Positions 2,555 through 35,304 of a stretch of DNA of 64,000 nt are shown piece by piece. The notes beneath the pieces were generated by a model. It was not told the origin of the DNA and searched no databases. It saw nothing but the letters and a program-made list of their open reading frames with translations. The position numbers were made by a program, and so were the translations under genes. This DNA is from Bacillota bacterium. GTDB taxonomy: Bacteria; Bacillota; Dehalobacteriia; UBA4068; UBA4997. Every line of letters begins with the position of its first letter. Position 1 is the first letter of the stretch. Location: positions 173,374 to 237,373 of the forward strand of contig JAVBWO010000012.1 in NCBI GenBank assembly GCA_036677375.1. The letters are read 5' to 3'.

Positions 2555-4048
2555 ATGGGTCTGAGTTATCAATCAACCGGCAGGTTGGCAGCCGCAACTG
2601 CTCTGCAAATTGTTAAGAGTTCCTACGAAGACAAAGTGATCGCCCTGGCAGGGAACCCTAACGTGGGGAAAAGTACCGTATTTAATGGCCTCACCGGATT
2701 GAATCAGCATACCGGTAACTGGCCCGGCAAAACCGTTACCAATGCACAGGGCAGCTATGTTTATCAAAACCAAAATTTTATCCTCGTGGACGTACCTGGC
2801 ACCTATTCCCTTCTGGCCAGTTCCGTTGAGGAAGAAGTCGCCCGGGATTTTATCTGCTTTGGCGACCCGGATGCCACCATCATCGTGGCAGACGCCACCT
2901 GTCTGGAACGCAATCTGAATCTGATGCTGCAAATTTTGGAAATCACGGGCAATGCGGTAGTCTGCGTCAATCTATTGGATGAAGCCAAAAAGAAAAAAAT
3001 CCGGGTCGACTTGGCGGCACTCCAAAAAGAATTAGGCGTTCCGGTGGTAGGAACCAGCGCCGTTGCCAAAAAAGGACTGGCGCAGTTGCCGCAGGAAGTC
3101 CACGGCATTACCGCAGGCTCCAAAACAACATCACCCTTTCGGCTTTCTTATGATCCCGTCATCGAAGAAGCCGCTGCCATGCTAAAACCCGCTTTGACAA
3201 AGCTTTTACAAGGCAGACTGGATTCCCGCTGGGTTGCCCTAAAGCTCCTAGACCTGGATGAAACGCTTTACAAGGCGCTTACCGCCTACCTTTCCTATGA
3301 TCTTCTGGCCGACCCTATTTTGCAAAAGTTGTTGGCACAAGCAAAAGCCTATCTGGAAGAAAAAGGCATGGGGCGGGAGCTTTTACGGGATAGAATCGTA
3401 GAAAGCCTGGTAGCCGAAAGCGAACGGATTTTTCACAACTGCGTTGTCTTGGAAAATCAAAGGTACCACAGCCGCGACCGCAGAATTGACCACCTTCTGA
3501 CGGCCAAAGCCACCGGAATTCCCATTATGCTGGCTTTGCTGGCTCTGATCTTCTGGTTGACCATCGTGGGGGCTAACTACCCTTCATCCTTGCTTTCCAC
3601 ATTTTTTTTCTGGCTGGAAGACCGGATCACCGTTTTTTTTCATCTCATTGGAGCGCCGGGCTGGCTACATGGCATGTTAATTGCGGGATGCTACCGAACA
3701 CTGGCCTGGGTCGTTTCTGTGATGCTGCCGCCCATGGCCATCTTTTTCCCGCTATTCACCCTGCTTGAAGATTCCGGTTATTTGCCACGGATCGCCTTCA
3801 ACATGGATCGCTTCTTTAAAAAAGCCTGCGCTCATGGCAAACAATCATTGACCATGTGCATGGGGTTTGGTTGCAATGCCTGCGGCGTCATCGGCTGCCG
3901 GATCATCGATTCACCAAGAGAACGGTTGATCGCCATTCTGACCAATAATTTTGTACCCTGCAACGGCAGATTACCGCCACCATCCTTAGGGCAAAAATCA
4001 GTCATGCCTTATACCTATACTTGCTCTTATGAAGCCTGTTTCTCATGA
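2555..4048 (+). CDS. feoB: FeoB 5' segment: G-domain plus first part of membrane domain. Interrupted: homology ends after ...FVPCNGRLP at ~3975, followed by an unrelated 23-aa tail and stop.
   Basis: GNPNVGKST G1 motif. Collinear with the intact FeoB paralog at 37949..39955 up to GFGC...SAKLP. C-terminal ~250 aa absent here and found at 34420..35304. Confidence 0.85.
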   Translation: MGLSYQSTGRLAAATALQIVKSSYEDKVIALAGNPNVGKSTVFNGLTGLNQHTGNWPGKTVTNAQGSYVYQNQNFILVDVPGTYSLLASSVEEEVARDFICFGDPDATIIVADATCLERNLNLMLQILEITGNAVVCVNLLDEAKKKKIRVDLAALQKELGVPVVGTSAVAKKGLAQLPQEVHGITAGSKTTSPFRLSYDPVIEEAAAMLKPALTKLLQGRLDSRWVALKLLDLDETLYKALTAYLSYDLLADPILQKLLAQAKAYLEEKGMGRELLRDRIVESLVAESERIFHNCVVLENQRYHSRDRRIDHLLTAKATGIPIMLALLALIFWLTIVGANYPSSLLSTFFFWLEDRITVFFHLIGAPGWLHGMLIAGCYRTLAWVVSVMLPPMAIFFPLFTLLEDSGYLPRIAFNMDRFFKKACAHGKQSLTMCMGFGCNACGVIGCRIIDSPRERLIAILTNNFVPCNGRLPPPSLGQKSVMPYTYTCSYEACFS

Positions 4049-4075
4049 GCGGCGGCTCACTGGGCAGGCGACAGA

Positions 4076-4112
4076 AAAACCCTCCTCCGTACAGGTAACG
4101 GAGGAGGGTTTT
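4076..4112 (+). terminator. Rho-independent terminator just after truncated feoB
   Basis: aaaaaccctcctccgtacaggtaacggaggagggttttt. Confidence 0.7.
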
Positions 4113-4697
4113 TCCACAAGATGGCACGTGACGAGATGCTGCCGCGCCAGGGGCCCCGCTTAATCCTAAGGCGGCTTCAGTACCAATGCCGAAAGCGATA
4201 CCGGGCGCAAAGCGCCGCAGCTACCATCACTCCTATGGGAAAATGGTTTTCTTAAGGCATCGTCCCCCTTTCCTCCTGCGCTTTCAGGTGATTGATGATG
4301 CCGTTGACAACCCGAATTTTTTCCGATGTTGTCAGACAGGAGGTGTTTAATCTGTTTTCAATTAACTGTACATGAAAAGCATTGACGCGTTCTTCCACGA
4401 CTTCTCTCTTGTCTTGACTGCCGGGATAGATGCGAATATTTTTGACCTGAGTTCTTTCAATTCACCCCCCTCCCTAAACCGCCTGGGGATGCGATTCTGT
4501 CCGGTTCGGTAGGGTTTTGCATTTCATTTTTCTTCAGGAGCCGTTGCTCCCTATAAGATGGTCATGATTCATGATGGTGATTGCCCTAACCGTTTGCATC
4601 CCCACGGGCGCTTTATGCAATCATATGAAGCAACCGGCATGACCTATGCATGATAAACATTTATACGTTTGATCTTTTGCATCTTTTTTTACTAGCG

Positions 4698-4766: not shown

Positions 4767-5225
4767 ATGGATGAATTAGCCAAGAAAGCTTATATTTTCG
4801 GCACGATCTTCGCCTTATCCAATCAATTGCAAGTGCTTGGCGATGCCTTCGATCCTAATATTACTATCAAACAATGGCTTTTTATGGCAAGCGTTTCCAA
4901 ATTTAAAGATCCGCCCACGATCAGTGAAGCAGCGGATTTTATCGGCTATTCCAGGCAAAACGCCAAGCGCATCGCAACTGCTCTAAAAGAACAAGGCTAT
5001 GTAACCATCACAAAGGATCCATATGATTCACGCGCCTTACGAATCGCCTTGACCCCCCAATGCACAGAGTATTTTGCCGGGCGATGGCAAAAAGAAGCCG
5101 ATTTTTTGGAGCGGCTTTTTAGCGGATTTGACGCAGAATTCATTGACAAGTTTTGCCAGAGCTTGTCGAAGCTTGGGAAAAATATTGAAATGATGGTGAG
5201 TGAACATGAAACGATCAAAGATTAG
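4767..5225 (+). CDS. MarR family transcriptional regulator
   Basis: 152 aa winged-helix MarR pattern. First gene inside the left end of the element. Confidence 0.75.
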   Translation: MDELAKKAYIFGTIFALSNQLQVLGDAFDPNITIKQWLFMASVSKFKDPPTISEAADFIGYSRQNAKRIATALKEQGYVTITKDPYDSRALRIALTPQCTEYFAGRWQKEADFLERLFSGFDAEFIDKFCQSLSKLGKNIEMMVSEHETIKD

Positions 5226-5265
5226 AAAAAGCAGAGAAAGCAGCAGAAGCAGAAGGAGCAGATTG

Positions 5266-6099
5266 ATGATTATTTTAGGAATCATAGTTGGTCTGATATT
5301 GCTGATTACCATCTATTTTATACAGCCGTATTCGGCTTTGAAATCGGATTTTACTCAAAATGTCAATGCGGCTGCCACAAAAATGCCAATAGAAGCAAGC
5401 CAATTTACCGCAGAAGACATTGCCGGTCTTCCCGAACCTGTTCAAAAATATTTTACCGATTGCGGATATATCGGCACACCTAAAATGTCCTATATGAAAG
5501 CAACCTTCCAAAACGTTGCATTTTCAACCGGACCTAACAATCGGACACTGAAAATCGATTATACGCAATATAACTTTGTCAAAGAGCCCACCCGATTTGC
5601 TTTTATCGATAGCGCCATGTTCGGTATTCCGTTTCAGGGATTTGACTGTTATTTCGGCGGCGCCGGCAATATGAAGGGCGTACTTGCCAAGACCTTCACA
5701 CTATTTGACCAGAAAGGTGCCGAGATGGATCAAGCCAGTCTTGTTACCGTACTTTCGGAATGCCTGCTGATCCCCAATGTTGCTTTGCAAGACTACATTA
5801 CTTGGGAAAGTATTGACGAGACCCATGCCAAAGCAATCATATCCTACTTGGGAAATCGCGCAAGCGGCCTTTTCACCTTTGCCGAAAACGGTGAAATGCG
5901 CTCATTTACCACGGATGACAGAACGGCAATCGACTTTAACGGAAATAAACAGCATGTAAAATGGACTGCCATTTGTGATGATTACAAAGATCATAACGGA
6001 ATCAAACAGCCTTCCACATTAAAAGCAGTCTGGCATTATCCGGAGGGTGACCACACCTATTTCGACGGGTCCAATGTCAAAATCGAATTTTATCAATAA
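5266..6099 (+). CDS. Hypothetical membrane-anchored protein (N-terminal TM helix, ~250 aa extracytoplasmic domain)
   Basis: ORF track starts at 5200, but ATG at 5266 has GAAGGAG RBS 7 nt upstream. Co-oriented with marR. No recognisable catalytic motifs. Confidence 0.5.
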   Translation: MIILGIIVGLILLITIYFIQPYSALKSDFTQNVNAAATKMPIEASQFTAEDIAGLPEPVQKYFTDCGYIGTPKMSYMKATFQNVAFSTGPNNRTLKIDYTQYNFVKEPTRFAFIDSAMFGIPFQGFDCYFGGAGNMKGVLAKTFTLFDQKGAEMDQASLVTVLSECLLIPNVALQDYITWESIDETHAKAIISYLGNRASGLFTFAENGEMRSFTTDDRTAIDFNGNKQHVKWTAICDDYKDHNGIKQPSTLKAVWHYPEGDHTYFDGSNVKIEFYQ

Positions 6100-6114
6100 G
6101 CAGCCGAAAAAACA

Positions 6115-6140
6115 AACCTGCCGGAATTACCGGCAGGAAG
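6115..6140 (+). terminator. Terminator hairpin CCTGCCGG-aatta-CCGGCAGG
   Basis: Perfect 8 bp stem downstream of 6099 stop. Confidence 0.55.
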
Positions 6141-6414
6141 ATAAGAGGATAAAAGGGCATGCGCCATAGAGTGCATGACCTTCCTTTTTTGGGGTTGACT
6201 TTCTATTATGACTTGATGCTGTATTATTTGATTCTATAAATAGCGCGGCGCGTATGAATGAAAGAACCACCCGCTATTGAATTGTTTCAGAACTGTTCAT
6301 TGACGGGTGGTTATGATTCTCTTTACCGGCTTCCCCTACTCCGTTTGATTTGCCACTTCGCTTTTAAATTCACTTCTCCTTGCGCCATCCGGTTTTCTTT
6401 TCCTGTCAGAGTGG

Positions 6415-8826
6415 TCATTGAAGCTCAAAAACGGCATAATCACGGTATTCGTAATAACCGTTGGAGATCAAAAGCTCCAGCGGATCATCGCTGTCCAGAT
6501 TGGCCAGAAAGCCAATATTTTCCGTTTTATAGTCCCAGTCGGTATGGGTCCATATATTTGATTTCACAATCCGGTAGGTCTGAGGAGTGTTAAGGTCGTC
6601 AATGATGAGCATGGCGTTGACAAATGCCGTTTTGCCGTCTTTGAAATGCTGTTCACTCCATTTTTCCTGAAATGGCAGCGGGTCCCCATCAATTTTCCGG
6701 TAGACATCATTGATCTCAAGAACCGCGCCAATGACGCCGTCGCCGCAAACATCCCCTTCATAAGCGGCATCAATGGCAACCGGCGCATTTTCAATCTGAT
6801 TGTCTTTGAGATACTGTTTCACAGTATCCATATATTTTGCCGTATTCGTTCCTTTTCTGACTTCCCGGTAACCGCTATTAGCGCTTTTCAAGACCCCATA
6901 ATATTCTTCCGGCATATCGTCCGGTTTTAGCCTGTCACATGCCGGAAAGGATAAAAAGATCTCGCCCTCATAATCTCCCGGAACCAATTTTACCTGATAA
7001 GTTCCCAGTTTTTCATCCTGTGTATACAGGTCAAAATCCAAGCCCTGCAAAACGGAGATGGGAAAATCAAACCCCTCTGGCCGAGCGACGCCGTTCACGA
7101 TGAGCATATCATTGGCTACGACAATCTGATAGTCGTTCAAATTGACGGTGCGGGGGTAATCCGCCGCTTTCGCCGGATCACAAAGCTCGAAGACTTCCTC
7201 ATAACCATCCGTAAGGTTCAAATAAACAAATTGGCCGTCCCGTACCGCGTAGGTAGAACGGCCCTCGTCACGGTAAGCGCAATATAGTTCGTCATAGAGC
7301 AAAGGCACCACCAGCTCACCTGCGGTATTGATAAAACCGTACTTACCGTCTTTTAGCACAGGTGACAGGCCAAAGTAGAAACCGTCCACTTCGTCATAGT
7401 CATAGAGTTTGCCGTTGACGTCAATGGGTTTCCAAACAGGTTCGCCATTTGTGTCAACGCGCACTTTGCCAACACCTTTCCAAAAATCCGAAGCGCCGTC
7501 ATATGTGGCCTCCACCAAAACATTGCCTTTTTGATCCTGAAATCCCGCTTTGCCGTTCTCATGGAAAACCACGGGATAACGCCAGTTAGGAATATCCGGA
7601 GTGATCTTAAAACCGGCAAACGGGGTTTGAATGGCGCCATACAGCATGTCGGTCACCGATTCCTGCTCACTGCTTTTTGCCGGATCTTCCGCACTCGTAG
7701 TGCCTTCTTGAATGCCAGGCTCCACCAAAGCAGAGTTAGCCGGCTCTACCTGTTTGCCGTTGGTTAAAGTAACTGCCGCTACGATAACCACCAAAATTAA
7801 TGCGAGAACCGTTACCAAGGCGCTCTTTTTTTTAAAGTTCATGATCGCCTTGATCCTTGACTTCAGGTTGCTTTCGCCAAAGGAAAGGATACCACCGTTT
7901 AAAAGCCCGTTTTGTCTGGCACTGAAATCAATCAGGGTATTGGCGTAATCGGCGCGGGCTTCGCCGCCGAAAACAGCCAAAACCTTCTCATCACAGGAAA
8001 ACTCCATGTCTTTCTTAAATAAAAAATAACATAACCAAACCAGAGGATTAAAAAAATGGATGCAAACAGCCAACAAAAACAAGAGGTTCCAAACAGGGTC
8101 CGCCCGCTTGATATGGCAGAGCTCGTGCACAAGGATCTTTTCCAGCTTTTCATCCGGCTGACTTTCACAGGCCACAGGCAGGATGATACGGGGATGAATC
8201 AGACCGCATAGGATAGGACCTTTTATATTTTCACTCAAAAGAACTTTGCTTTCTCTTTTCAAATTGATCCGGCCTTGGCTTATTTGGATCAGTCCGCTAT
8301 TTTGGTAAAGGCAAGCCGTTTTCAGCTTTGACCGGATTTTTATGTAACCCGCGATACTGAACAGCAAGAGCAATAGGACTCCTGCCACCCAAAAAAGCGA
8401 AGCGGCAAAGTAGGCTGCCTGAACAGTGTCAAGACTGCCAATCTTTTGGCTTAGCCCCGTCTTTTTCGTTGTCTCTGAGGGATTGATCTGATATGTTGCA
8501 TCTGCCGCAGGCAGATTTTGCCGAGACGGCAGGTTGAATTGGGATTTGCTTGGCTTCAGCAAGTCCGGCTCCAGATACTCATTGACGGCAATCCTTTGGG
8601 CGGGAACCGGCGTAGGCACCGCATTGAATATGCTGAGACCGGCGGCAAACGAAAATGGGAGCAGCAGCCGGATCAGTAAGACGATCCAAAGAACATAAAG
8701 AATTCTTTTAGGGATGAGCCTGGCAAAACAAAAACGCACCAGCAAGATCACAAGGGCAACAAGAGAACCGGTAAAGGTCAGGTTCAATACGGTCCGGAAT
8801 ACGGTGTCAAGCATTATCTTTCTCAC
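6415..8826 (-). CDS. BlaR1/MecR1-family M56 metallopeptidase sensor with large C-terminal extracytoplasmic domain containing KWG/WG-like repeats
   Basis: N-terminal TM segments, HELCH(x)KRxD zinc motif, second TM block. ~450 aa C-terminal domain with repeated GKYGFIN / KDGKYGF-like motifs. Overlaps blaI stop. Confidence 0.75.
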   Translation of the reverse strand: MRKIMLDTVFRTVLNLTFTGSLVALVILLVRFCFARLIPKRILYVLWIVLLIRLLLPFSFAAGLSIFNAVPTPVPAQRIAVNEYLEPDLLKPSKSQFNLPSRQNLPAADATYQINPSETTKKTGLSQKIGSLDTVQAAYFAASLFWVAGVLLLLLFSIAGYIKIRSKLKTACLYQNSGLIQISQGRINLKRESKVLLSENIKGPILCGLIHPRIILPVACESQPDEKLEKILVHELCHIKRADPVWNLLFLLAVCIHFFNPLVWLCYFLFKKDMEFSCDEKVLAVFGGEARADYANTLIDFSARQNGLLNGGILSFGESNLKSRIKAIMNFKKKSALVTVLALILVVIVAAVTLTNGKQVEPANSALVEPGIQEGTTSAEDPAKSSEQESVTDMLYGAIQTPFAGFKITPDIPNWRYPVVFHENGKAGFQDQKGNVLVEATYDGASDFWKGVGKVRVDTNGEPVWKPIDVNGKLYDYDEVDGFYFGLSPVLKDGKYGFINTAGELVVPLLYDELYCAYRDEGRSTYAVRDGQFVYLNLTDGYEEVFELCDPAKAADYPRTVNLNDYQIVVANDMLIVNGVARPEGFDFPISVLQGLDFDLYTQDEKLGTYQVKLVPGDYEGEIFLSFPACDRLKPDDMPEEYYGVLKSANSGYREVRKGTNTAKYMDTVKQYLKDNQIENAPVAIDAAYEGDVCGDGVIGAVLEINDVYRKIDGDPLPFQEKWSEQHFKDGKTAFVNAMLIIDDLNTPQTYRIVKSNIWTHTDWDYKTENIGFLANLDSDDPLELLISNGYYEYRDYAVFELQ

Positions 8827-9238
8827 CCCTTTCCACTCTTTCTGCTCTTTCTGCTCTTTCTAATTTTTCTAATTTTTCTACACCGTCTACTTTTCCCACG
8901 ATTTTACGCAGCTCGTCAATTTCTGTTTGACTGAGCTTTTCATCCTGTAAAAAGCTGACAAAAAAAGCTTTTAAAGAACCGCTGTATATTTTTTCGATAT
9001 GCTGGCGGCTCTCCTGTTTTTGCACCTGTTCACGGGTAACCAAGCTTTTGATGACACTGTCTTCCTTTTGGATAACACCCCTTTGGCAAAGCCTTCTGAT
9101 GACGGTAAAGGTGGTTGATTTTTTCCAGGAAAGCTCCTTTTCGCAAAGCTTAACCAGCTCGCCGCTGCCCATCGGTTCTTGATCCCAGACCAGGTTCATA
9201 AAACGCATTTCCGCGTCAAAGATTTTAATATTTGCCAT
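8807..9238 (-). CDS. BlaI/MecI/CopY-family penicillinase-type transcriptional repressor, with repetitive EKLEKLERAERAERVE C-terminal tail
   Basis: Winged helix N-terminal domain typical of BlaI. Tail encoded by tandem DNA repeats at 8835-8880. Confidence 0.75.
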   Translation of the reverse strand: MANIKIFDAEMRFMNLVWDQEPMGSGELVKLCEKELSWKKSTTFTVIRRLCQRGVIQKEDSVIKSLVTREQVQKQESRQHIEKIYSGSLKAFFVSFLQDEKLSQTEIDELRKIVGKVDGVEKLEKLERAERAERVERGEKDNA

Positions 9239-9390: not shown

Positions 9391-9960
9391 CTATTCCTGG
9401 CTCTTCAAAAAATACCGCAATGCCTCTTCGTCCACTTGTCCGTCCTTCATATCCAGCGGCAGGCCGAAAGCAGGAATCCTGGAGACGCCCCGCTCCTTTG
9501 CAATCTGATGGATGATATCAATAAAAGCGCCGCTGTCTTGGATATAAGCCACAGGCTGGTCGATCTCACTCCAAAAGCCCATGGAACCGCCCCACTGGGT
9601 ATTGCTTTCCGTGATGCTGACACCGCAGGAAGGGCTGCCGTCAATGCCCAGCAAGATGACCTTATAATCTTCCCGCAAATAATCCATGATGCCGTCAAAC
9701 AAAAACTCCGCCGCCCGCCGATAAGCCATGGTGTAGCCGTAACAGGCATATTGCTCTTTCACCTGGCCCCAGCGCCGGGTTCCAGCCGCGTAAACCTCCG
9801 GACAAGGCATCTGCACGATGGAATAACCAAAATCCTCCAGGATCTTGGCAATATGAGGCACCTGGGCAGGGAATCTGGCCAATCCGCCCACCTTGGCTTG
9901 CTGGTTCAATAAACAATGTGCTAAAAGGGCAATCTTTTTGCTTCTTCCGTCATCATGCAT
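9391..9960 (-). CDS. DUF523 (TudS-like) Cys-rich putative [4Fe-4S] protein. Paralog of 22512..23123.
   Basis: LLAHCLLNQ...MPCPE...GIDGSPSCG cysteine pattern resembles DUF523/2-thiouracil desulfurase family. GGGGAGG RBS. Confidence 0.5.
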   Translation of the reverse strand: MHDDGRSKKIALLAHCLLNQQAKVGGLARFPAQVPHIAKILEDFGYSIVQMPCPEVYAAGTRRWGQVKEQYACYGYTMAYRRAAEFLFDGIMDYLREDYKVILLGIDGSPSCGVSITESNTQWGGSMGFWSEIDQPVAYIQDSGAFIDIIHQIAKERGVSRIPAFGLPLDMKDGQVDEEALRYFLKSQE

Positions 9961-10169
9961 CTTCTGTTCCTCCCCTTATGTTCCGAGCATATTTACCGGT
10001 AATTTTTGCTAACTTATTGGTTTAAGTTCTTGTCTTATTTTCATATTATTCTACTCTATTTTACTTAAGCTAGACAATAACCACCGGCGGTTTCAAACCG
10101 CCGGTGGTCGTAAGCGAACATTGAAAAACCTCTTAGGCAAGCCGGTTTCGCATGCTCAAGGCTTTATCG

Positions 10170-10937
10170 CTAAAGGATCTTCGAGAAGAAATCCTTGGTT
10201 CGTTCGTTTTTGGGATTTTCGAAAATTTCCGCCGGTATGCCTTCTTCCAAAACGATACCGCCGTCCATAAACAAGACTCTGTCGGCAACCTCCCTGGCAA
10301 AACCCATTTCATGGGTTACAACCACCATCGTCATATGAGCCTTTGCCAGATTTTTCATAACATCTAAAACTTCCGAGATCATTTCCGGGTCCAAAGCTGA
10401 GGTAGGCTCGTCAAACAACATGACCTTAGGCTCCATGGCCAAGGCTCTGGCAATTGCCACCCGCTGCTGTTGACCGCCGGAAAGATTGTCGGGATAGGCG
10501 TCCTTTTTTTCCGCCAAACCGACCCTGACTAAAAGCTGCATCGCCTGATCTTCCGCTTGCGCTCTGCTTTGCTTTTTAACGATCTGTGGCGCCAACAGGA
10601 TATTTTGCAAAACGGTCTTATGAGGGAACAGGTTGAATTGCTGAAAAACCATACCCATCTCGGCTCTGGTCTTATTGACATTATGTTTCTTTAAAATATC
10701 ATTGCCCTCAAAAAAGATATTGCCCTCCTGCGGGTGTTCCAGGAGATTCAGGCAGCGTAAAAAAGTGCTCTTGCCGCTGCCACTGGGGCCGATGACCACA
10801 ATGACCTCGCCTTGTTTAATGGTAACATCAATGCCTTGCAAAACATGATGATCGCCGTAATATTTATGAAGTCCCTGCACCTCAAGGATGACAGGTCTAT
10901 TTTGCAAGTCTTGCTTGCGCGTTTTCTCGTCTATCAC
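10170..10937 (-). CDS. Polar amino acid ABC transporter ATP-binding protein
   Basis: Walker [18 protein letters not shown] signature, C-terminal [17 protein letters not shown] typical of GlnQ/HisP group. Confidence 0.9.
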
Positions 10938-14832: not shown

Positions 14833-14852
14833 AAATAAGGGAGGACAACGTA

Positions 14853-26181: not shown

Positions 26182-26337
26182 AAGCAGTGGCAGATAGGCT
26201 TTATTCCGGTTTGCGTGTTTAATCGGCAATATCGCCCGCGGTTTTAGTTGATTTATAAAACTTACAAGTCAATTTACAATGGAGTTAAACGGTTTGTTAA
26301 GACAAAAAAGCAAAGACACAAGTTAGGGGGTCTTTAA

Positions 26338-28176
26338 ATGGGGTTCAAGTTTGTTCTGCTGGATATCAATCTGTCAACCGAAGAGATCGCCACCCGTGAA
26401 CTCCCCTTCCACCTCATCAAAGAATATATCGGAGGCAGGGGCCTTGGTGGCAAACTTCTCTTGGATCTGGTGCCGCCCGGCGCCGATCCCTTGGGGGAAG
26501 AGAATGTGATGATCTGGTTGAACGGCATTTTATCCGGCACCTTGATACCCGGCAGCTCCAAGCATGCCGTTATCACAAAGTCACCTGTATCAGGCGCGTA
26601 TTGCGACAGCTACTCCTCCGGCGGGGTCGGTTTCAATATGGTATATTCCGGCTATCATGGCATGATCCTGCGGGGAAAATCGAAAAAACCGTCATATATA
26701 TATATTAAAGACGAAACGGTGGAGATCCGGGACGCTGCCCATCTATGGGGTATGTATTCCTTTGCCGCTTCCGAGAAACTCCTGGCCGAGCTGGGCGGCG
26801 AAGGCTGGGGTCACGCTATGATCGGCCCTGCCGGGGAAAACATGGTCTGCTATGCCGGTATCAACAACGACTATTTCCGCCAGGCCGCCAGAGGCGGCGT
26901 CGGCGCCGTCATGGGGTCGAAGAATATTAAGGCGGTTGTGGCAAAAGGTTCCGGCGGCGTCCCCTGTCTGGATGTGGCAGGCTTCATGAAGCTGCACCAG
27001 GATCGGCTGGCAGCCGCCAAGGTCAATCCAGCGGCGGAGCATCATAAAGCAGCCGGTACCAGCGTTACCTTAGACGTCACGGCGGTGGCTGGTATGCTGC
27101 CCACCAGGAATTTTCAAACCGGCGTCTGCCCGGATTCTTTAGGCGAGCTGGATTCCGAAGGCTATAAGAAAAAAGCCACCGCTTCGGTGGCCTGCCTAGC
27201 CTGCCCCGTTCCTTGCGGCAAGATCCTAAAGTGCCGCCAGATCGACGGCCAGGAATTCCGCATTGAAGGGCCGGAATATGAAACCGCTTGTCTTTTAGGC
27301 ACCAATCTTGGTATCGTTGACTTGAATTTTGTTTCGGAAGCCAATATGCTCTGCGACAATCTGGGCATGGATACCATTTCCGCCGGTAATATTATCGGCT
27401 TTATCATGGAACTGACCCAGCGGGGTCTAATCCCGGCAGAATTCAAAGACCAGGCCATTGCCTTCGGTGATCAAGCAGGCGCTCTCAAAGTCATGGAAGA
27501 TTTGGCCTACAGCAGAGGCATCGGCGCTTTAGCCAAAGGCGGCGTCCGCGCTTTGGCCCGGGCCATCGGACATGATTCCGAAGATTTCGCCATGCAGAGC
27601 AAAGGACTGGAATTTCCAGCCTACGATCCGCGCCGGGGCTTCGGCACCGCGCTTTCCTATGCCGTCACCCCCCGGGGAGCCTGCCACCGCCGGGCCTGGC
27701 CGCCGGGACGTGAGGTGCTGGGCGGCTTCCCGCCCTATGAATTCAAAGAGAAGGGGCAGCTCATCAAGGACCAGTTTGATGAGCGGAATATCCTGCACTC
27801 TTTGATTGCCTGCGATTTCAACTTCTTCGCGGTACCCGTATCCGTTGACCAGTATATGGAATATACCCGGCTGGTGACCGGCATCGATTTCAGTCAGGAA
27901 GAACTGGATATGGCGGTAGACCGTATCGAAAGCACCATCCGTTATTTTAATTCTCTTCAAGGCCTTACCAGGAAGGATGATACCATGCCTAAGCGCGTTC
28001 TGGAGGAACCCATGCCGGAAGGTCCTGCGCAAGGCAAAATGGTGACCAAAGAGGGCTTTGAAGATATGTTGGATCAATATTACGCATTACGAGGCTGGGA
28101 TTCCGACGGCACACCCACCCCAAAAACTTTAGACAAATATGGTATCCGGTCTGGAGGTGGCAAAATATGCGGTTAA
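26338..28176 (+). CDS. Aldehyde:ferredoxin oxidoreductase (tungsten/molybdopterin AOR family)
   Basis: 612 aa with AOR N-terminal and catalytic domain pattern, including the typical ...KSPVSGAY... region. Confidence 0.85.
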   Translation: MGFKFVLLDINLSTEEIATRELPFHLIKEYIGGRGLGGKLLLDLVPPGADPLGEENVMIWLNGILSGTLIPGSSKHAVITKSPVSGAYCDSYSSGGVGFNMVYSGYHGMILRGKSKKPSYIYIKDETVEIRDAAHLWGMYSFAASEKLLAELGGEGWGHAMIGPAGENMVCYAGINNDYFRQAARGGVGAVMGSKNIKAVVAKGSGGVPCLDVAGFMKLHQDRLAAAKVNPAAEHHKAAGTSVTLDVTAVAGMLPTRNFQTGVCPDSLGELDSEGYKKKATASVACLACPVPCGKILKCRQIDGQEFRIEGPEYETACLLGTNLGIVDLNFVSEANMLCDNLGMDTISAGNIIGFIMELTQRGLIPAEFKDQAIAFGDQAGALKVMEDLAYSRGIGALAKGGVRALARAIGHDSEDFAMQSKGLEFPAYDPRRGFGTALSYAVTPRGACHRRAWPPGREVLGGFPPYEFKEKGQLIKDQFDERNILHSLIACDFNFFAVPVSVDQYMEYTRLVTGIDFSQEELDMAVDRIESTIRYFNSLQGLTRKDDTMPKRVLEEPMPEGPAQGKMVTKEGFEDMLDQYYALRGWDSDGTPTPKTLDKYGIRSGGGKICG

Positions 28177-28568
28177 AATTTATTGCTAAAAACTGTGTCG
28201 GCTGCGAAGACTGCACCTTGGTTTGCTCTCTGGTTCATGAAGGCGTTACCGGCCTGGCTCTGGGCAGGATCAAGATCACAAGGAACTATCCGTCATTAGA
28301 AGACCCCCTGATCAAGGGCTATTTTTGCCGACAATGCAAAAAAGCAAAATGTGTGGAAGCTTGTCCCGTTCAAGCTCTCACCCAGGGAGAAGACCTGGTA
28401 AACTTTGATCAGGAGCTTTGCACCGGCTGCGGCGCCTGCGTTGAGGCCTGTCCCTTTCACAGCATATGGATGAACCAAAAAACCGGCTTACCATTTAAGT
28501 GCGATACCTGTCAGGGAGATCCCAGTTGCGTCAAGATTTGTCCTCATGAAGCGTTAAAATGGGAGTAA
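28167..28568 (+). CDS. 4Fe-4S dicluster ferredoxin (AOR-associated)
   Basis: Several CxxCxxCxxxCP motifs. Overlaps AOR stop. Confidence 0.85.
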   Translation: MRLKFIAKNCVGCEDCTLVCSLVHEGVTGLALGRIKITRNYPSLEDPLIKGYFCRQCKKAKCVEACPVQALTQGEDLVNFDQELCTGCGACVEACPFHSIWMNQKTGLPFKCDTCQGDPSCVKICPHEALKWE

Positions 28569-28781
28569 TGGATCAAGCCGGAAAAACAGCCTGTCATCAG
28601 TAGCATGCCTTGTCTTTTCCTTTGGTGCCCGGGAAGACGAACCAAAAGACCGGCTTGCCTTTTAAGTGCGATACCTGTCAGGGAGATCCCAGTTGCGTCA
28701 AGATTTGTCCTCATGAAGCGTTAAAATGGGAGTAATGGATCAAAATCGGGAAAGCAGCCTGTCATTAACAGCATGTCTTGG
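28472..28781 (+). repeat. Two tandem copies of a ~155 bp unit covering the last ~30 codons of the ferredoxin gene plus downstream intergenic sequence
   Basis: Copy 2 begins ~28627. ~95% identity between copies by eye. Copy 2 includes ...KCDTCQGDPSCVKICPHEALKWE* without a start codon. Confidence 0.85.
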
Positions 28782-28854
28782 TCTTTCCCATTGGCGACGG
28801 GGATAAAAAGCAAACTAAAGTTAAAGTATCAGACCAATATTGGAGGGAGTAAAA

Positions 28855-29291
28855 TGACAAGAAGACCTAGGATCATCTTGGCGAAGCCCGGCTTAGACGG
28901 TCATGACAAAGGAGCGCGTCTGGTCGCTATGGCCATGCGCGACGCGGGTATCGATGTGATCTATCTCGGTCTGCGCCAATCCGTGGATGCCATAGTCAAA
29001 GCGGCCGCCGAAAAAGAAGCGGACTTCATCGGTTTAAGCATTTTATCCGGCGTTCACTTGAATGTGGCGGATAAATTATTGAAAAAAGTGGCGAAAGCAG
29101 GGCTTAATTGCCCTGTCGTTATCGGCGGTATCATTCCGCCCCAGGATGAGGTTAAATTAAAAGAGATGGGCATTGCACAGGTGTTCCCCGTCGGCACCAG
29201 CTTTGCCGCAACGGTGGATTGGATCAAGCAGAATTTTGCAGAAACGGCTAAAGGGAGGGCGCTAACATGGCAGATGGAAAAAACTGTGTAA
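28855..29291 (+). CDS. Cobalamin-binding subunit of an acyl-CoA (methylmalonyl-CoA mutase-family) mutase
   Basis: Start re-picked at MTRRPRIIL (GGAGGGAG RBS). B12-binding DxHxxG motif GLDGHDKGA. Rossmann-like domain. Confidence 0.8.
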
Positions 29292-30865
29292 CCGATTCCG
29301 GTATTCCCATCAAGCCCTTCTATACCCCGGAGGACATGGCCGGCTGGGATTATGAAAGCGCTTTGGGTGTTCCCGGCGACTATCCTTATACCAGGGGCGT
29401 CTACAGTAATATGTACTTGGGGAAGATCTGGACCATGCGCCTTTATTCCGGTCTGGCAACGGCGGAGGAAACCAATGAACGTTACCGTTACCTTTTGTCC
29501 CAAGGACAGACCGGCCTTTCCGTGGCTCTTGACCTTCCCACCCAGCTGGGATATGATTCCGATAATTCGCTGGTGGAAGATGAAGTGGGCAGGATCGGTG
29601 TGGCCATCGATACCTTAGCCGACATGGAACGGCTTTTCGAGGGCATTGATTTAGGCAAGATCACCACTTCCTTTACCATCAATTCCACCGCCATTATCAT
29701 TTTGGCCATGTATGTGGCCGCCGCCGTAAAACAGGGCGTACCCATGGATAAGATCAGCGGCACCACGCAAAACGATATGGTCAAGGAATTTTTGGCCAGA
29801 AACACCTATATCTTCCCTATGGAAGACCATATTCGCATCAGCGTCGATATCATCGAATTCTGCGCCAAGCATGTTCCCAAGTGGAATCCCATCAACATTG
29901 CCGGATACCATATCCGGGAAACGGGCGCCGACGCTGTTCAGGAGCTGGCCACCATCTTAAAGACAGCTATCATGATCACAGAGGAAACGTTGAAAAGAGG
30001 CATCGACATCGACAGCTTTGCCCCCCGCCTCTCCTTTGAATTGTGGACGGGTCCGGACTTTTTTGAGGAAGTCGCTAAATACCGGGCGGCCCGCCGCATG
30101 TGGGCCAAGATCATGAAAGAGCGCTTCCATGCCCAAAATCCCAAATCTCTGCTCTTCCGGGTCTTCGCCGGCGGCAACGGCATCACCTTGCCCGCCCAGG
30201 AACCCTTGAACAACGTGGTCAGGGTTACCATGCAGAGCCTGGCTTCCGCTTTAGGCGGCGCTCAGGCCATTCATGCGCCGGCTTATGACGAAGCCATCGC
30301 AACCCCCACCCAGGAAGCTGCTTTACTAGCCTTGCGGACACAGCAGATTCTGGCTTATGAGACAGGCATCACCAAGACGGTCGATCCCCTGGCCGGTTCC
30401 TACTATGTGGAAAATCTCACCGATGAGCTGGAAAAACGGGCCTTTGCCATGATGGACGACATGGACGCCCAAGGCGGTCTCATCGAATGTGTCAATAAAG
30501 GCATCATCCAGCGCCAGGTTCAGGAAAGAGCCTACCAAAAGGAGCTGGCTATCCAAACCGGCGAACGCACAGTTATCGGCGTCAATAAATTCCATAATGC
30601 CGAGGCATCCAAGGTGGATATCCCCATCTATCAGGCGGATGAAAGCATTCGCGCAAAGCAGATCTCCCACCTGCAAAAAGTGAAGGAAAGCAGAAACAAT
30701 CATGCCGTGGCAACCACCTTGACCGCCGTGCGGGAAGCAGCCGCCGCCAGAGCTAACATTTTCCCGGCTGTTTTAGACGCTGTCCAGGCCTATGCCACCG
30801 TAGGGGAAATCACCGATACGCTGCGCAGCGTCATCGGGGAATATCAGGCGCCACCCATTTTCTAA
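29267..30865 (+). CDS. Acyl-CoA mutase large (substrate-binding TIM-barrel) subunit, methylmalonyl-CoA mutase family
   Basis: 532 aa with MCM N-terminal domain pattern: FYTPEDM...YPYTRGVY...MRLYSG. Confidence 0.85.
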   Translation: MADGKNCVTDSGIPIKPFYTPEDMAGWDYESALGVPGDYPYTRGVYSNMYLGKIWTMRLYSGLATAEETNERYRYLLSQGQTGLSVALDLPTQLGYDSDNSLVEDEVGRIGVAIDTLADMERLFEGIDLGKITTSFTINSTAIIILAMYVAAAVKQGVPMDKISGTTQNDMVKEFLARNTYIFPMEDHIRISVDIIEFCAKHVPKWNPINIAGYHIRETGADAVQELATILKTAIMITEETLKRGIDIDSFAPRLSFELWTGPDFFEEVAKYRAARRMWAKIMKERFHAQNPKSLLFRVFAGGNGITLPAQEPLNNVVRVTMQSLASALGGAQAIHAPAYDEAIATPTQEAALLALRTQQILAYETGITKTVDPLAGSYYVENLTDELEKRAFAMMDDMDAQGGLIECVNKGIIQRQVQERAYQKELAIQTGERTVIGVNKFHNAEASKVDIPIYQADESIRAKQISHLQKVKESRNNHAVATTLTAVREAAAARANIFPAVLDAVQAYATVGEITDTLRSVIGEYQAPPIF

Positions 30866-31003
30866 GATCTGCCTGCCCATCAAATAAAATTAGCAGAAAT
30901 AAAAGAGCCGCGGTTTGTTGTGAGTGGATGAACCCGGGTCTTAAATCAGCGGGCAAGTATGAAATTGCTTGTTAACAGGTAAAAGGAAGGAGCACAACTA
31001 TTC

Positions 31004-32389
31004 ATGTGCAATAGCGTTTTAATTAAAAATGGCACCATTACCAATGCCGAAGCGATATTTGCCGGAGACATCCTTATTGAAAACGGCAAAATCAGCCAGA
31101 TCGGCGCCGACCTTAAGGCTCCTGGCATCGAGGTCTATGACGCCGCCGGCATGCTGGTAATGCCAGGTATCATCGATCCTCATGTCCAATTGGAAATCAA
31201 ATACGGCAAATTTCCCATGACCGATGATTTTGACACCGGTACCATTGCCGCCGCCGCCGGCGGTGTCACCACTATCATTGACTTTGCCGACCAGCCCAAA
31301 GGCGTCGCGGCCATTGACGACTTAAAACATAGAATGAGTCTGGCCGACGGCAGGGTCAACGTGGACTATTCCCTGCATATGAGCCTGACCGACACCAAAG
31401 CCGGCGCCGTAGGCGACATCAAAGCCGTGGTGGAAAGCGGCATCGCCAGCTTCAAGCTGTATATGGCCTATAGCCGCCGGGACCGCATGGTCAACGAGGG
31501 TCAGATCGACCATATCATGTCGGAAGCCGCCAAATACGGCGCTATCACCGGTATTCACGGCGAAAACGACAATATGGTGGAATACCTGATCGCCCGCCAT
31601 CAGCAGGAGGGCAAGACAGGCATTGAATACTTCACCCAGGCTCGTCCCGACACGGCGGAGATCATCGCCGTTCAGACCGCCATTACCCTGGCTGAAAGAA
31701 ACCACTGCACCCTTTATGTGCACCATGTCAGCTGCGCCGGTACATTAAATGCCATTAAAGAAGGGCGCAAACGGGGCGTCAGGATCTATGCGGAAACCTG
31801 CCCCGCTTACCTGACCCTCACCGAAGATGTCTATCAAAAAGAAGGCGGCGAGATCTACATTCTCAACCCGGCTTTGCGCCAAGAAAGCGACCGGCTGGCT
31901 CTTTGGCAAGGCATCGTGGACGGCGAGATCGACACCATCGGCACCGACCATTGCTCCTATACTTTAGAACAAAAACGCACCAATAAAGATAATTTTGACG
32001 GCATCCCGGCAGGCTTACCAGGCATCGAGCTTTTATTTCCGGTGATGTACACCGTTGCCGTCGCCGAAAATAAAGTGACTCTGCCCCGCTTATTAGAGCT
32101 GATGACCTATAATCCGGCCCGCATCTTCGGTTTGGCGCCGCAAAAAGGCGTGCTGGCTCCGGGCAGCGACGGGGATATTCTCATCTATGATCCCAGGAAG
32201 ACCTGGCAGGTCGACCCGGCCAATCTTTATATGAACGTCGACTTCACTCCTTTCGACGGCTGGACCATGCAAGGTGAAGTGAAAGCTACCTTCCTCCGGG
32301 GCCAAAAACTCTACGAAAACCATGTATTCTGCGGTCCGCAGCATCGCGGACAATTTGTATTCGGTACGCCGGCCCCTTATCGCCGGTAA
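31004..32389 (+). CDS. Dihydropyrimidinase/hydantoinase-family cyclic amidohydrolase. First metal motif is DPHVQ, not the usual HxH.
   Basis: 461 aa. Putative carboxylated-Lys region IASFKLYMAY. Family pattern holds throughout. Confidence 0.8.
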   Translation: MCNSVLIKNGTITNAEAIFAGDILIENGKISQIGADLKAPGIEVYDAAGMLVMPGIIDPHVQLEIKYGKFPMTDDFDTGTIAAAAGGVTTIIDFADQPKGVAAIDDLKHRMSLADGRVNVDYSLHMSLTDTKAGAVGDIKAVVESGIASFKLYMAYSRRDRMVNEGQIDHIMSEAAKYGAITGIHGENDNMVEYLIARHQQEGKTGIEYFTQARPDTAEIIAVQTAITLAERNHCTLYVHHVSCAGTLNAIKEGRKRGVRIYAETCPAYLTLTEDVYQKEGGEIYILNPALRQESDRLALWQGIVDGEIDTIGTDHCSYTLEQKRTNKDNFDGIPAGLPGIELLFPVMYTVAVAENKVTLPRLLELMTYNPARIFGLAPQKGVLAPGSDGDILIYDPRKTWQVDPANLYMNVDFTPFDGWTMQGEVKATFLRGQKLYENHVFCGPQHRGQFVFGTPAPYRR

Positions 32390-32402
32390 CTTACGCTCCA
32401 TT

Positions 32403-32445
32403 TAAGGAGGCAGTGGACAGCTTGTTCCACTGCCTCCTTAAATTT
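32403..32445 (+). terminator. Rho-independent terminator after the amidohydrolase gene
   Basis: ttaaggaggcagtggacagcttgttccactgcctccttaaatttctctt. Confidence 0.75.
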
Positions 32446-32742
32446 CTCTTGCCTTATTTAACACGGCAGGTTCCTGTCTTTTCACCGAACTACTCTCTTT
32501 CTTGTATTGTACCATCCGTCAGATTGCGCCGAGAAAGGGATAATAAAAGCAAGCCGAAGTCAATAAGATAAAGCAGAACTATGCCGGAGCCCCAATCACC
32601 GCAGGGAAAGCGCCCTCTGATCAGAATTCCGTTTCTCAAAACGCTGCGAAAGCGTTTTGCTAATGAGATACCAAGAGAATTTCTGTAATCAGCGTTTAAA
32701 ATGTTGCGGGGAAAAGGGAAACCGGGACGGGGAGGCCCGCTT

Positions 32743-34341
32743 ATGGCGCGCATTGCCATCTACAGCCGGAAATCCAAATATACCGGCAAAGGAGAATCCA
32801 TCGAAAACCAGATCGAAATGTGCCGCGAGTATATCTTTAATCACATTCCCAATATACGCCATGAGGATATCACCGTATATGAAGACGAGGGTTTTTCCGC
32901 AAAAACCCTGGACCGGCCGCAGTTTCAAAAAATGCTGAAAGACGCCGCGAAAGCTCCTTTTGACTATGTGGTCTGCTACCGGCTGGACCGCATCAGCAGG
33001 AGCGTCAGCGATTTTTCCGCTCTGATCGAGGATCTTGCCCGCCGGAAAACGGCTTTTATCTGCATCAAAGAACAGTTCGACACCTCAACCCCCATGGGCA
33101 GAGCCATGATGTATATTGCCAGCGTCTTTGCCCAACTGGAACGGGAGACCATCGCCGAACGCGTCCGTGACAACATGCTCATGCTGGCCAGAACAGGCCG
33201 TTGGCTGGGCGGAACCCCACCCACGGGATTTACCTCTGAAAAGGTGGAAGAAATCATCTTGGAAGGCAAAACCAAATCCTCCTGCAAGCTGAAATGGAAT
33301 CTCACAGAGATCCGGACGGTGAAAACCATCTTTGCCAAATTTATGGAACTTGGTACGCTTTCCGGCGTCAGTAAATATCTGATCAAAAACAATATCCGGG
33401 CCAGGAGCGGCCAATTTTTTTCCCTGCCGGGCTTAAAGGAGATCTTGTCCAATCCAGTCTACTGCATGGCCGACAAGGCTGCCCGGGATTATTTTTTATC
33501 CAAAGGCTCGGATGTTTGCTTTGAAGAAGCGCAGTGCTCCGGCAAAGCCGGTTTGCTTGCCTACAACAAACGGGATTATACCAAAAAAAATGCCCCCAGG
33601 CAGGATGAGAACCGCTGGATCATCGCCATCGGCAAACATAAGGGCATCGTTTCAGGTAAAAACTGGTCCGCTATTCAAGAAATTCTGGCGGAAAACAAAA
33701 CCAAGAATCCAGTTCCGAAAACTAAAAATGATTATGCTTTGCTCTCCGGCATGATATCCTGCAGCATATGCGGTTCGCGGCTCTTTGCCAAAAACCGTCA
33801 TAACAGCAATGCTTACGATTATATTTGCAGCGGTAAGCTGCGGGGCGGCACCAAGCTGTGCGGCGTTCGAAATTTAAACGGGCAAGAAACAGATGAACAG
33901 GTCTGGCATACTTTGCTTCGCTGCACCAAAGAAAACGAGGGCATCTATCCTTTGCTGGAGCAATTAAAGGAGAGGCTGAAGGAGCAGGAAGCAAGCAACC
34001 CTTTGACAGAATTGGCCCAAAGCATCAAAAAATGTCAGGAAGAAACGGAACGCTACCTGAATGTTCTTGCTCAACCCCATTTAAATGAGGTGCTTCTGGA
34101 AAAAGTCAATACAAAAGTCCAGGAACTCCATAAGACTCTGAATAACCTGTACCGGGAGCAGGCAAGGCTGGAAGCGGCAACCTGCCAGGATGAGCCGGAA
34201 AGCCTTATTGACGGCCTTGCTTTCTGGAAAGATCATGAGTCAATTTTATCGGTACGGGAAAAACGGCAGCTGCTTAAAATCCTCATAGAGCGTATGCAAT
34301 GGAACGGCAGGGAACTTCACATCTTTCTTACCGGCTGTTAA
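32743..34341 (+). CDS. Large serine recombinase (resolvase/invertase catalytic domain + recombinase domain + zinc-ribbon + coiled coil)
   Basis: Start re-picked at MARIAIYSRKS (GGGAGG RBS). N-terminal serine-recombinase catalytic pattern. C-terminal CSICGS...CSGK...C zinc ribbon, coiled-coil tail. Confidence 0.85.
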   Translation: MARIAIYSRKSKYTGKGESIENQIEMCREYIFNHIPNIRHEDITVYEDEGFSAKTLDRPQFQKMLKDAAKAPFDYVVCYRLDRISRSVSDFSALIEDLARRKTAFICIKEQFDTSTPMGRAMMYIASVFAQLERETIAERVRDNMLMLARTGRWLGGTPPTGFTSEKVEEIILEGKTKSSCKLKWNLTEIRTVKTIFAKFMELGTLSGVSKYLIKNNIRARSGQFFSLPGLKEILSNPVYCMADKAARDYFLSKGSDVCFEEAQCSGKAGLLAYNKRDYTKKNAPRQDENRWIIAIGKHKGIVSGKNWSAIQEILAENKTKNPVPKTKNDYALLSGMISCSICGSRLFAKNRHNSNAYDYICSGKLRGGTKLCGVRNLNGQETDEQVWHTLLRCTKENEGIYPLLEQLKERLKEQEASNPLTELAQSIKKCQEETERYLNVLAQPHLNEVLLEKVNTKVQELHKTLNNLYREQARLEAATCQDEPESLIDGLAFWKDHESILSVREKRQLLKILIERMQWNGRELHIFLTGC

Positions 34342-34419
34342 AAGCAAATACGTTTTGAAAGCTTTTTATTTTTATGGATCAATGGCGGCTGACTGCCCGG
34401 AGGCGTTATACCGGAACCT

Positions 34420-35304
34420 TTGATACATAAAAGAACGGAAACCGCTGCTCTTTTTTCTCTTAACCGTAATCTCATTGACGTTATGATAAACTTTTATTAT
34501 GTCTGTACGGAGCCGCCGAACTTTAAGGAGCTATGGGCTTTGTACTCAACATTTTGCCATAGGTATGGCGGCGCCTTTCCCACCTTGATTGCAATTATCA
34601 CCATGTTCTTTGCCGGCGCGGCTGCCGGCCTTTGGCAATCGGTGCTGTCCGTATTGCTTCTCACAGGGGTGATATTGCTGGGAGTCTTCATGACATTGTC
34701 CATCTCCAAGCTGTTATCCAAGACGATACTGAAGGGCCTCCCCTCCTCCTTTGCCCTTGAGCTGCCGCCTTACCGAAAGCCGCAGATCGGCAAAGTCATC
34801 GTGCGTTCTATTTTTGACCGTACTCTTTTTGTCCTGGGCCGCGCGGTCATGGTCGCAGCCCCGGCAGGCATCCTGATCTGGCTTCTTTCCAATGTATCAT
34901 TAGACGGCGTTACCATTCTGGCGCATTGCACCGGATTTTTAGATCCTTTTGCCAGGCTTTTCGGCTTTGACGGTGTCATCCTCATGGCTTTTCTTTTAGG
35001 CTTTCCCGCCAATGAGATCGTCATTCCCATTATCATCATGAGCTATATGTCGCAAGGCAGCCTTATGGAGCTAGACAGCTTGACCCAATTGAAAGATCTG
35101 CTGATCAATAACGGCTGGACTTGGGTAACGGCGGTCTGTACCATGCTCTTTTCCTTAATGCATTTCCCCTGTGCCACCACCTGTCTTACCATCAAAAAAG
35201 AGACCCAAAGCTTGAAGTGGACTATACTTGCTTTCCTGCTGCCTACCATGACGGGACTTTTAATATGCTTTATCGTGGCCAATGGGGCAAGACTCTTATT
35301 CTGA
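34420..35304 (+). CDS. feoB: FeoB 3' segment (C-terminal membrane domain). Homology to FeoB resumes at ~34528 (...WALYSTF...). The first ~36 codons of the ORF are junction-derived.
   Basis: Collinear with residues ~430-668 of the intact FeoB paralog (ELPPYRKP vs ELPAYRLP etc.). Same strand as the 5' segment at 2555..4048. Confidence 0.8.
   Translation: MIHKRTETAALFSLNRNLIDVMINFYYVCTEPPNFKELWALYSTFCHRYGGAFPTLIAIITMFFAGAAAGLWQSVLSVLLLTGVILLGVFMTLSISKLLSKTILKGLPSSFALELPPYRKPQIGKVIVRSIFDRTLFVLGRAVMVAAPAGILIWLLSNVSLDGVTILAHCTGFLDPFARLFGFDGVILMAFLLGFPANEIVIPIIIMSYMSQGSLMELDSLTQLKDLLINNGWTWVTAVCTMLFSLMHFPCATTCLTIKKETQSLKWTILAFLLPTMTGLLICFIVANGARLLF

Follow-up and report, generated by a model that had tools for sequence, protein, structure and literature searches.

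A feoB-specific and probably excisable serine recombinase island splits an iron-transporter gene in a Bacillota bacterium

The stretch of DNA analysed here (64,000 nt, hereafter the window) comes from the Bacillota bacterium assembly GCA_036677375.1 (contig JAVBWO010000012.1, positions 173,374–237,373 of the forward strand) and contains an iron-transporter gene, feoB, that is split by an island encoding a large serine recombinase (LSR). The gene feoA (2270–2530, + strand; Pfam FeoA, E 1.1e-15) lies directly 5′ of the split gene. The 5′ part of feoB (2555–3972, +) encodes residues 1–472 and extends into codon 473 by two bases (TT). The coding sequence is cut between positions 3972 and 3973 and resumes at 34576, where the 3′ part (34576–35304, +), located inside an open reading frame (ORF) spanning 34420–35304, provides codons 473–714 and the stop codon. 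As it stands, FeoB ends prematurely at residue 472, with the remaining 242 codons left 30.6 kb downstream. The insert measures 30,605 bp (3973–34577) and carries at its right end the LSR gene (32743–34341, +), which encodes 532 aa, or 546 aa if translation begins at an upstream in-frame ATG at 32701.

An original prediction, made from the sequence alone, had described an insert of about 30 kb with a large serine recombinase at its right end, and the ORFs on which it relied were all found at the positions given (2555–4048, 32743–34341, the 3′ part, and an intact feoB paralog at 37949–39955). Three of its details needed correction. The 5′ ORF does lose homology near the CNGR site, as had been seen, but the feoB sequence itself stops at 3972 and the ORF continues to 4048 through a 25-codon tail derived from the element. 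The 3′ half is likewise real, but it starts at 34576 instead of ~34528, and it encodes 242 instead of ~255 residues. The product of the 5′ ORF corresponds to the FeoB G-domain and the first portion of the membrane domain, and aligns with residues 4–449 of the paralog (32% identity, E 7e-73); the 3′ product aligns with residues 461–659 (E 2e-14), collinear and non-overlapping with the 5′ piece, as had been proposed.

Both halves of feoB are free of stops and frameshifts, and joining 2555–3975 to 34581–35304 yields a FeoB of 714 aa. This restored protein matches thousands of intact FeoBs in a database of 5.8 billion protein clusters; the best 120 matches are 701–727 aa long (mostly 715–718) and show 65–71% identity over 97–100% coverage, with many intact proteins of 715–716 aa covered at 100%. 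The joint has neither a gap nor an added residue relative to the orthologs, which read CNGRFPTLIAIIT at this place. Precise excision of the insert would thus recreate an intact feoB ORF in frame, in agreement with the original prediction.

The boundaries of the element were defined by the alignment of orthologs that had been suggested for this purpose, extended to 54 junctions (36 attR and 18 attL) from different genomes. In the window, attL (3942–3998) consists of an attB left arm ending in ...TGCAACGGCAGA, the crossover dinucleotide TT at 3971–3972 and an attP right arm, ACCGCCACCATCCTTAGGGCAAAAA. The other junction, attR (34551–34606), consists of an attP left arm, TTTTGCCATAGGTATGGCGGCGCC, the crossover TT at 34576–34577 and an attB right arm beginning with TCCCACCTTGATTGC... 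All 54 junctions share the dinucleotide TT, and the break always falls in the Phe codon of the motif CNGR-F-PTLIA. Since TT is not palindromic, the orientation of insertion is fixed. The attP reconstructed from 34547–34577 and 3973–4002 reads ...TTTTGCCATAGGTATGGCGGCGCC-TT-ACCGCCACCATCCTTAGGGCAAAAA..., a ~50-bp imperfect inverted repeat centred on TT, with arms that are symmetric at 19 of 30 positions; the circle junction predicted from it is CCATAGGTATGGCGGCGCCTTACCGCCACCATCCTTAGGG. The consensus arms of the family form a nearly perfect dyad (left, AAAgTTGCCcTTtggaTGGTGGCGcA; right, reverse-complemented, TTTGTTGCCCTTTGTATGGTGGCGGA). By comparison, attB is feoB coding sequence, TGCAAYGGNMGN-TT-YCCNACNYTNATHGC, with symmetry at 12 of 30 positions, far below attP, and the junction predicted for the empty site is CCCTGCAACGGCAGATTTCCCACCTTGATTGCAATT. 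A palindromic attP paired with a dissimilar attB that shares a common dinucleotide is the standard signature of LSR site pairs, and the short sites found here, a ~50-bp dyad and a different target with TT in common, have this form.

The split is not an artefact of assembly. A separate Logan assembly contains the LSR end of the element (32629–34567) at 100% identity, and the same split architecture is present in the sister species, which was assembled independently by JGI and by Logan. The matching Logan contig (L001, 1.9 kb) is the sole other assembly with this exact LSR. It ends 9 nt short of the crossover TT, perhaps because coverage drops or the assembly graph branches close to the att site, and is uninformative on excision. 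Exact-protein look-ups with the FeoB fragment and the 532-aa LSR of the window returned no long contig.

The LSR contains the Pfam domains PF00239 (Resolvase, E 1.4e-37), PF07508 (Recombinase, E 2.7e-15) and PF13408 (Zn_ribbon_recom, E 1.4e-11), i.e., both the catalytic domain and the Recombinase and zinc-ribbon domains that characterize the LSR family. The catalytic residues Y7, R9, S11 and R80-D82-R83-R86 (RLDRxSR motif) are invariant in an alignment of 11 sequences. Among PDB entries, it matches best the catalytic domain of the TP901-1 integrase (E 5e-18), and the relatives of solved structure are only distant. Minus-strand ORFs located upstream of the LSR gene (32490–32759) were considered and dropped, as their protein is not conserved in the sister species.

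Thousands of protein clusters are 56–60% identical to this LSR. We compared 80 LSR loci of species-representative genomes with 80 loci found in IMG/VR and several others obtained through exact look-ups. When the LSR was at least 45% identical to that of the window, a feoB fragment broken at residues 470–474 was present in 47 of 59 loci, and directly adjoined the LSR gene in 44 of them; at 44% identity or less, a feoB fragment was present in none of about 115 loci. Among the 12 loci of the first group without a feoB fragment, three are on contigs that stop at the LSR and one holds an attP. The LSR is a member of a discrete clade whose target is, almost exclusively, this feoB site across many Clostridia, with hosts that include Lachnospiraceae, Oscillospiraceae, Anaerotignum, Brassicibacter, Youxingia, Massiliimalia and Anaerotruncus. 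Of 80 metagenome loci selected by FeoB similarity alone, four are split at this site, and 11 of the 120 best matches to the N-terminal part of FeoB are fragment-sized proteins, so that, among the matches listed, roughly 5–9% of this FeoB subfamily is interrupted at one codon in the sampled metagenomes. Element size in the clade varies between about 3 kb and over 30 kb (L034, L045, L047, L011 and L075). In two atypical loci, the LSR occupies an internal position in the element (L023, 2127–9093, with a gap of 5.3 kb between the LSR and attR; L075, 6293–14861). In a further locus (L033, position 5743), an arm resembling the right arm of attP stands beside non-feoB DNA and may mark another target or an off-target event.

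A fuzzy scan of all compared loci for attP identified one true site only, at 11630–11681 of a 14,411-bp contig from [Clostridium] aerotolerans DSM 5434 (L021; NZ_JHWJ01000028.1), and a scan of IMG/VR with a strict attP core pattern returned three unrelated GC-rich palindromes only. In the aerotolerans contig, an intact attP lies between the stop codon of the LSR gene and the 3′ end of a small ORF on the opposite strand, an order that matches the arrangement expected in an excised circle. Its length suggests that this contig may be a whole circular element, and it is 78–80% identical in nucleotide sequence to feoB-integrated elements of two Lacrimispora-like genomes (L019 and L026). In many pairs of loci, the LSRs are 91–95% identical when the C-terminal parts of the host FeoBs are only 70–83% identical, and the element-side DNA at attR is near-identical where the host side differs. 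These comparisons show clear horizontal spread of the elements in sub-groups of the clade. The 47 independent loci point first to a mobile, site-specific element for which feoB would be the habitual attB.

The same data bear on the idea that the DNA need not be rearranged at all, each feoB piece being expressed on its own and the two products combining into a working transporter. Both pieces are open and, as described below, under purifying selection, and the 3′ piece has in-frame upstream starts (TTG 34420 and ATG 34483). Against this, the cut lies inside the invariant motif CNGRFPTLIA, the sister species does not share the upstream extension of the 3′ piece (its called gene starts past the junction), and in relatives a distance of between 3 and over 30 kb separates the pieces, with the LSR at either end. 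Moreover, the 5′ piece is followed by a strong, bidirectional terminator-like hairpin (4074–4114; −30.5 kcal/mol, z = −7.5), located between the truncated feoB ORF and a small ORF and kept in the sister species. We consider separate expression of the two pieces to be highly implausible.

LSRs recombine attP with attB on their own, but excision (attL × attR) requires a cognate recombination directionality factor (RDF), and RDFs show no sequence conservation (PMC12286644). The small ORF (4252–4461, − strand; 69 codons plus stop) belongs to a conserved family of 63–70 aa and is the only recurrent gene of the elements besides the LSR. A profile built from three copies matches 45 loci, including neighbouring LSR clades, and the ORF is nearly always on the strand opposite to the LSR; relatives of the same length are also present in a library of 1.8 billion proteins. 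In many elements (those of the window, the sister species, L011, L032, L034, L109, L162 and L247), it is located just inside attL and reads toward attL; the copy of the sister species is at 11560–11766 (−) of L165. A single-sequence AlphaFold model predicts a two-helix hairpin (pLDDT 72), too simple for a meaningful fold search. Relative to the sister species, the protein is 55% identical, with a ratio of nonsynonymous to synonymous divergence (dN/dS) of 0.18 at dS 1.98. We take the small ORF as the candidate RDF of the element because excision by an LSR needs an element-encoded factor and because GirX, the accessory protein of the gin element discussed below, was found by a like pattern of conservation.

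The history of the island was examined by comparing the window with the sister species (loci L002/L003 and L165/L166) using dN/dS values computed by NG86. The sister element has the same cargo in the same order, at the same site and in the same orientation, without a MarR–BlaI module that is described below. Its cargo proteins are 83–96% identical to those of the window (median dS about 1.0, dN/dS 0.017–0.11), and flanking core proteins are 67–91% identical (median dS about 1.4, dN/dS 0.027–0.13). The 5′ part of feoB is 81% identical at the protein level (dS 1.60, dN/dS 0.073), the 3′ part 84% (dS 0.94, dN/dS 0.11) and the LSR 70% (dS 1.44, dN/dS 0.14). The two halves of feoB thus have the same dN/dS as neighbouring core genes. 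When LSR and host gene are compared in this pair, the LSR shows the greater divergence (67% versus 85% identity), the opposite of what is seen in the pairs that testify to horizontal transfer. The attP arms are nearly base-for-base the same in both species, and the adjacent non-coding DNA cannot be aligned. Among the 5.8 billion protein clusters, no intact feoB allele is more than 71% identical to the restored FeoB. The comparison of the two species indicates that the feoB halves, the LSR and the attP arms have been under purifying selection at dS about 1. Because the LSR is site-specific for feoB, the lineage of the island must have been tied to feoB throughout the divergence of the two species, whether it stayed there without interruption or left and came back repeatedly, and the persistent constraint on feoB, LSR and att arms argues that feoB has probably been restored at least part of the time in this lineage.

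We therefore favour, with a probability of roughly 80%, the reading that this is an excisable, feoB-specific integrative island that is neither a phage nor self-transmissible and that has long been resident in its lineage. In this scenario, the LSR would have recombined a ~50-bp palindromic attP with the feoB attB encoding CNGR-F-PTLIA, and strand exchange at the TT of the Phe codon would have inserted the island into feoB. Excision would require the LSR plus an RDF, for which the predicted two-helix protein of 63–70 aa encoded just inside attL is the candidate, and in the resulting circle the LSR gene would be followed by attP and by the small ORF in opposite orientation. Residence at feoB would date back to before the two species split, and occasional excision, at the level of the population and perhaps conditional, would have maintained selection on feoB, on the LSR and on the att arms.

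Several observations weigh against this reading. Neither a contig nor a protein with the restored feoB or with the circular junction of this element was found, so that its excision is inferred and not observed. The co-divergence rests on one species pair with near-saturated dS. A scan for sigma-70 promoters gave no convincing candidate upstream of the LSR gene or of the small ORF. Three relatives retain only the last ~42 codons of the 5′ part of feoB beside attL (L005, 1961–2086; L015, 819–944; L168, 1904–2035), which implies that insertion can end in irreversible loss of feoB. As for the candidate RDF, it is absent from two of nine complete elements (L047 and L075) and matches no Pfam or PHROG family. 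In the window it also bears a 1-nt deletion after codon 3 (TTG AAA GAA C-T CAG versus TTG AAA GAA CGT CAG in the sister species), which places the TTG start at 4460, proximal to the ribosome-binding site, off the conserved frame; this frame can be reached only from an ATT at 4461, one base upstream of the TTG, or from an internal GTG at 4398. The deletion could be a recent disabling mutation, a case of low-level AUU initiation or a sequencing error, and through this frameshift excision may now be weak or lost in the window, with the element locked in.

Some of these points would suit a dead-end insertion, in which the island is fixed and the split feoB is a tolerated pseudogene, its conservation either predating the insertion or reflecting separate recent insertions in each species. 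The 5′ frameshift of the small ORF, the feoB remnants in the three relatives and the lack of any restored allele among those searched fit such a scenario, as do the presence of a second intact feoAB locus and the lack of relaxase, phage and conjugation machinery in the element. However, the halves contain no stops or frameshifts and have dN/dS values of 0.07–0.11 although the island genes have diverged by dS about 1, and the site-specific LSR ties the island lineage to feoB throughout this divergence. A fixed, immobile island would also maintain neither the LSR (dN/dS 0.14) nor the attP arms. The one-way insertion that the original prediction had offered as one of two possibilities is thus disfavoured in this lineage, and we regard it as quite improbable compared with an island that is still excised from time to time.

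The splitting of a gene by an LSR element, with restoration of the gene upon excision, is a textbook mechanism, and the resemblance to skin/SpoIVCA and XisF elements that had been noted at the outset is genuine and extends to SPbeta. In skin/SpoIVCA of Bacillus subtilis, inserted in sigK, and in skinCd of Clostridioides difficile, an LSR element likewise interrupts a gene, its excision restores the frame and phage functions have been lost. In skinCd, a small element-encoded RDF gives directionality to the reaction (PMC5025042). The target of skin is a sporulation sigma factor and its excision is tied to the mother cell, whereas here the target is an iron-transporter gene with a paralog nearby, and no developmental wiring was found. 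The closest system is gin, with GirC/GirX, in gerE of Bacillus cereus ATCC 10987, which is also a non-phage element with an LSR and a very small, motif-less accessory protein, the latter recognised by its conservation across elements (PMC5595907). In contrast to the present element, with its single LSR, large metabolic cargo and inferred excision, gin has three recombinase genes, interrupts a 225-bp sporulation gene and has been shown experimentally to excise. In SPbeta, the LSR SprA integrates within spsM, the RDF SprB controls excision and the gene is reconstituted (PMC5499854, PMC4191935). SPbeta is an active phage, whereas the window element and most of its relatives lack phage genes.

These precedents raise the possibility of a domesticated switch, in which conditional excision by the LSR and the small protein would restore this FeoB copy (FeoB1) under iron limitation, in a sporulating mother cell or in another terminal state. 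Such a switch is compatible with the possibility of precise in-frame restoration, with purifying selection over dS about 1 in two species, which acts on the LSR, the small ORF and the att arms as well as on both feoB halves, with the fact that only the split allele has been seen for this genus, with the lack of transfer genes and with the non-phage precedent of a small RDF in gin (GirC/GirX; PMC5595907). On the other side, an intact paralog is located 2.6 kb away, relatives have spread horizontally with unrelated cargo, some of them have destroyed feoB, and the candidate RDF is frameshifted in the window. No sporulation gene was found in the window, and the sigma-70 scan did not reveal a promoter at the LSR gene or the small ORF. 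The gene feoB is not known as a developmental, sporulation or heterocyst gene, which also counts against a switch. We therefore hold a regulated switch to be unlikely, and retain the feoB-specific excisable island as the preferred interpretation.

Mageeney et al. (2020; PMC7192596) proposed a criterion for "regulated gene integrity", namely a tight clade of integrases with independent integrations at the same position of the same protein domain. The feoB clade has both of these features; the survey did not test regulation. The gene feoB is not mentioned in the text of that survey or in the supplements that were examined, and full-text literature searches retrieved no article that connects feoB with a serine recombinase or with att sites. 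FeoB has been listed as "carried" by two predicted Streptococcus suis prophages (PMC13141850); the predicted boundaries could instead include a feoB fragment.

The cargo of the island falls into three blocks. The first (4767–9238) encodes a MarR regulator, a DUF6544 protein and a BlaR1/BlaI-like sensor and repressor module; it is specific to the window and not present in the sister element. The second (9391–12633, −) encodes a TudS-related desulfidase and an ABC transporter of the polar amino-acid type (ATPase, permease and binding protein). The third (13633–32389, +) is an operon-like cluster whose proteins are those 83–96% identical in the sister species. It encodes, in this order, a CoA-transferase III, a PreT/PreA dihydropyrimidine dehydrogenase, a Bmp-type, nucleoside-like ABC transporter and a TudS-related protein, then two TenA proteins, a zinc-dependent alcohol dehydrogenase (Zn-ADH), an aldehyde:ferredoxin oxidoreductase with a ferredoxin, a B12-dependent acyl-CoA mutase of two subunits and a dihydropyrimidinase. 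A strong terminator-like hairpin (32400–32443, +), with an 18-pair stem followed by a T-rich tail, separates this cargo operon from the LSR gene. Judged from these predicted functions, the cluster, together with the gene at 9391–9960 (−), looks like an undescribed anaerobic route for the reductive breakdown of (thio)pyrimidines or thymine, with methylmalonyl-CoA or succinyl-CoA as a plausible end point.

As had been claimed from the sequence, none of the element ORFs of at least 80 aa corresponds to a phage, conjugation or transposase gene according to Pfam. In particular, no phage structural, packaging or lysis gene was detected among these ORFs, so that the element does not qualify as a prophage, and no relaxase, coupling protein or type IV secretion gene was detected by Pfam, so that it does not qualify as an integrative and conjugative or mobilisable element either. 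The clade is nearly absent from viral contigs (two or three members in 2.9 million IMG/VR contigs). The pooled cargo of 37 elements, 208 ORFs in total, forms 178 clusters with hardly any sharing, and no phage structural family (PHROG) is among the top 25. Cargo types in relatives include transporters, two-component systems, kinases, methylases and radical-SAM enzymes. Relaxases of the MobA/VirD2 type account for two of 134 pooled cargo proteins of relatives, which suggests that some relatives may be mobilisable.

The second, intact feo locus is outside the element (37138–39955) and consists of a gene for a DtxR-like repressor (−), feoA (37721–37948) and the feoB paralog (37949–39955). The paralog reads SCSAKLP where the split gene reads PCNGRFP, and thus has no attB motif. 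It starts 2.6 kb downstream of the split gene, and this second feo locus can, as predicted from its gene content, supply iron uptake. A further DtxR-like gene (1595–2104, −) is located upstream of the first feoA. With DtxR-like genes and two feo loci around it, the island sits amid an iron-homeostasis neighbourhood. Between the split gene and the second locus (35429–36954) are genes for a DUF134 regulator and for a NUBPL/ParA-type P-loop protein fused to a domain resembling NifX and FeMo-cofactor-binding proteins. The remainder of the window contains housekeeping operons only (purL, aro, leu and prmA), and scans for Rfam families and tRNAs were empty throughout. Toward the end of the window, an ORF of 163 aa (61661–62152, −) matches DUF2284/MbdU-type "double selenoprotein" models in their C-terminal third only, with a score of 130 bits that is below the cutoff, and an upstream in-frame UGA (selenocysteine) may hide the rest of this gene.

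Several aspects of this system appear to be new: feoB as a target of LSRs, a large clade that is faithful to this site, a candidate small RDF and a split gene kept under purifying selection across a species split. For annotators, the clade means that "truncated FeoB" genes of about 475–520 aa are often attL junctions. It also constitutes a natural set of orthogonal combinations of LSR, attP and attB, possibly with an RDF, that share a defined 2-bp crossover. If the less likely view of a regulated switch were true, the elements would be more than parasites of a conserved site: Clostridia would possess a reversible switch of ferrous-iron uptake, involving a new family of RDFs, and regulated gene integrity would for the first time extend beyond development to a nutrient-uptake gene. 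The clade also flags a source of differences in iron uptake between strains of gut and bioreactor Clostridia.

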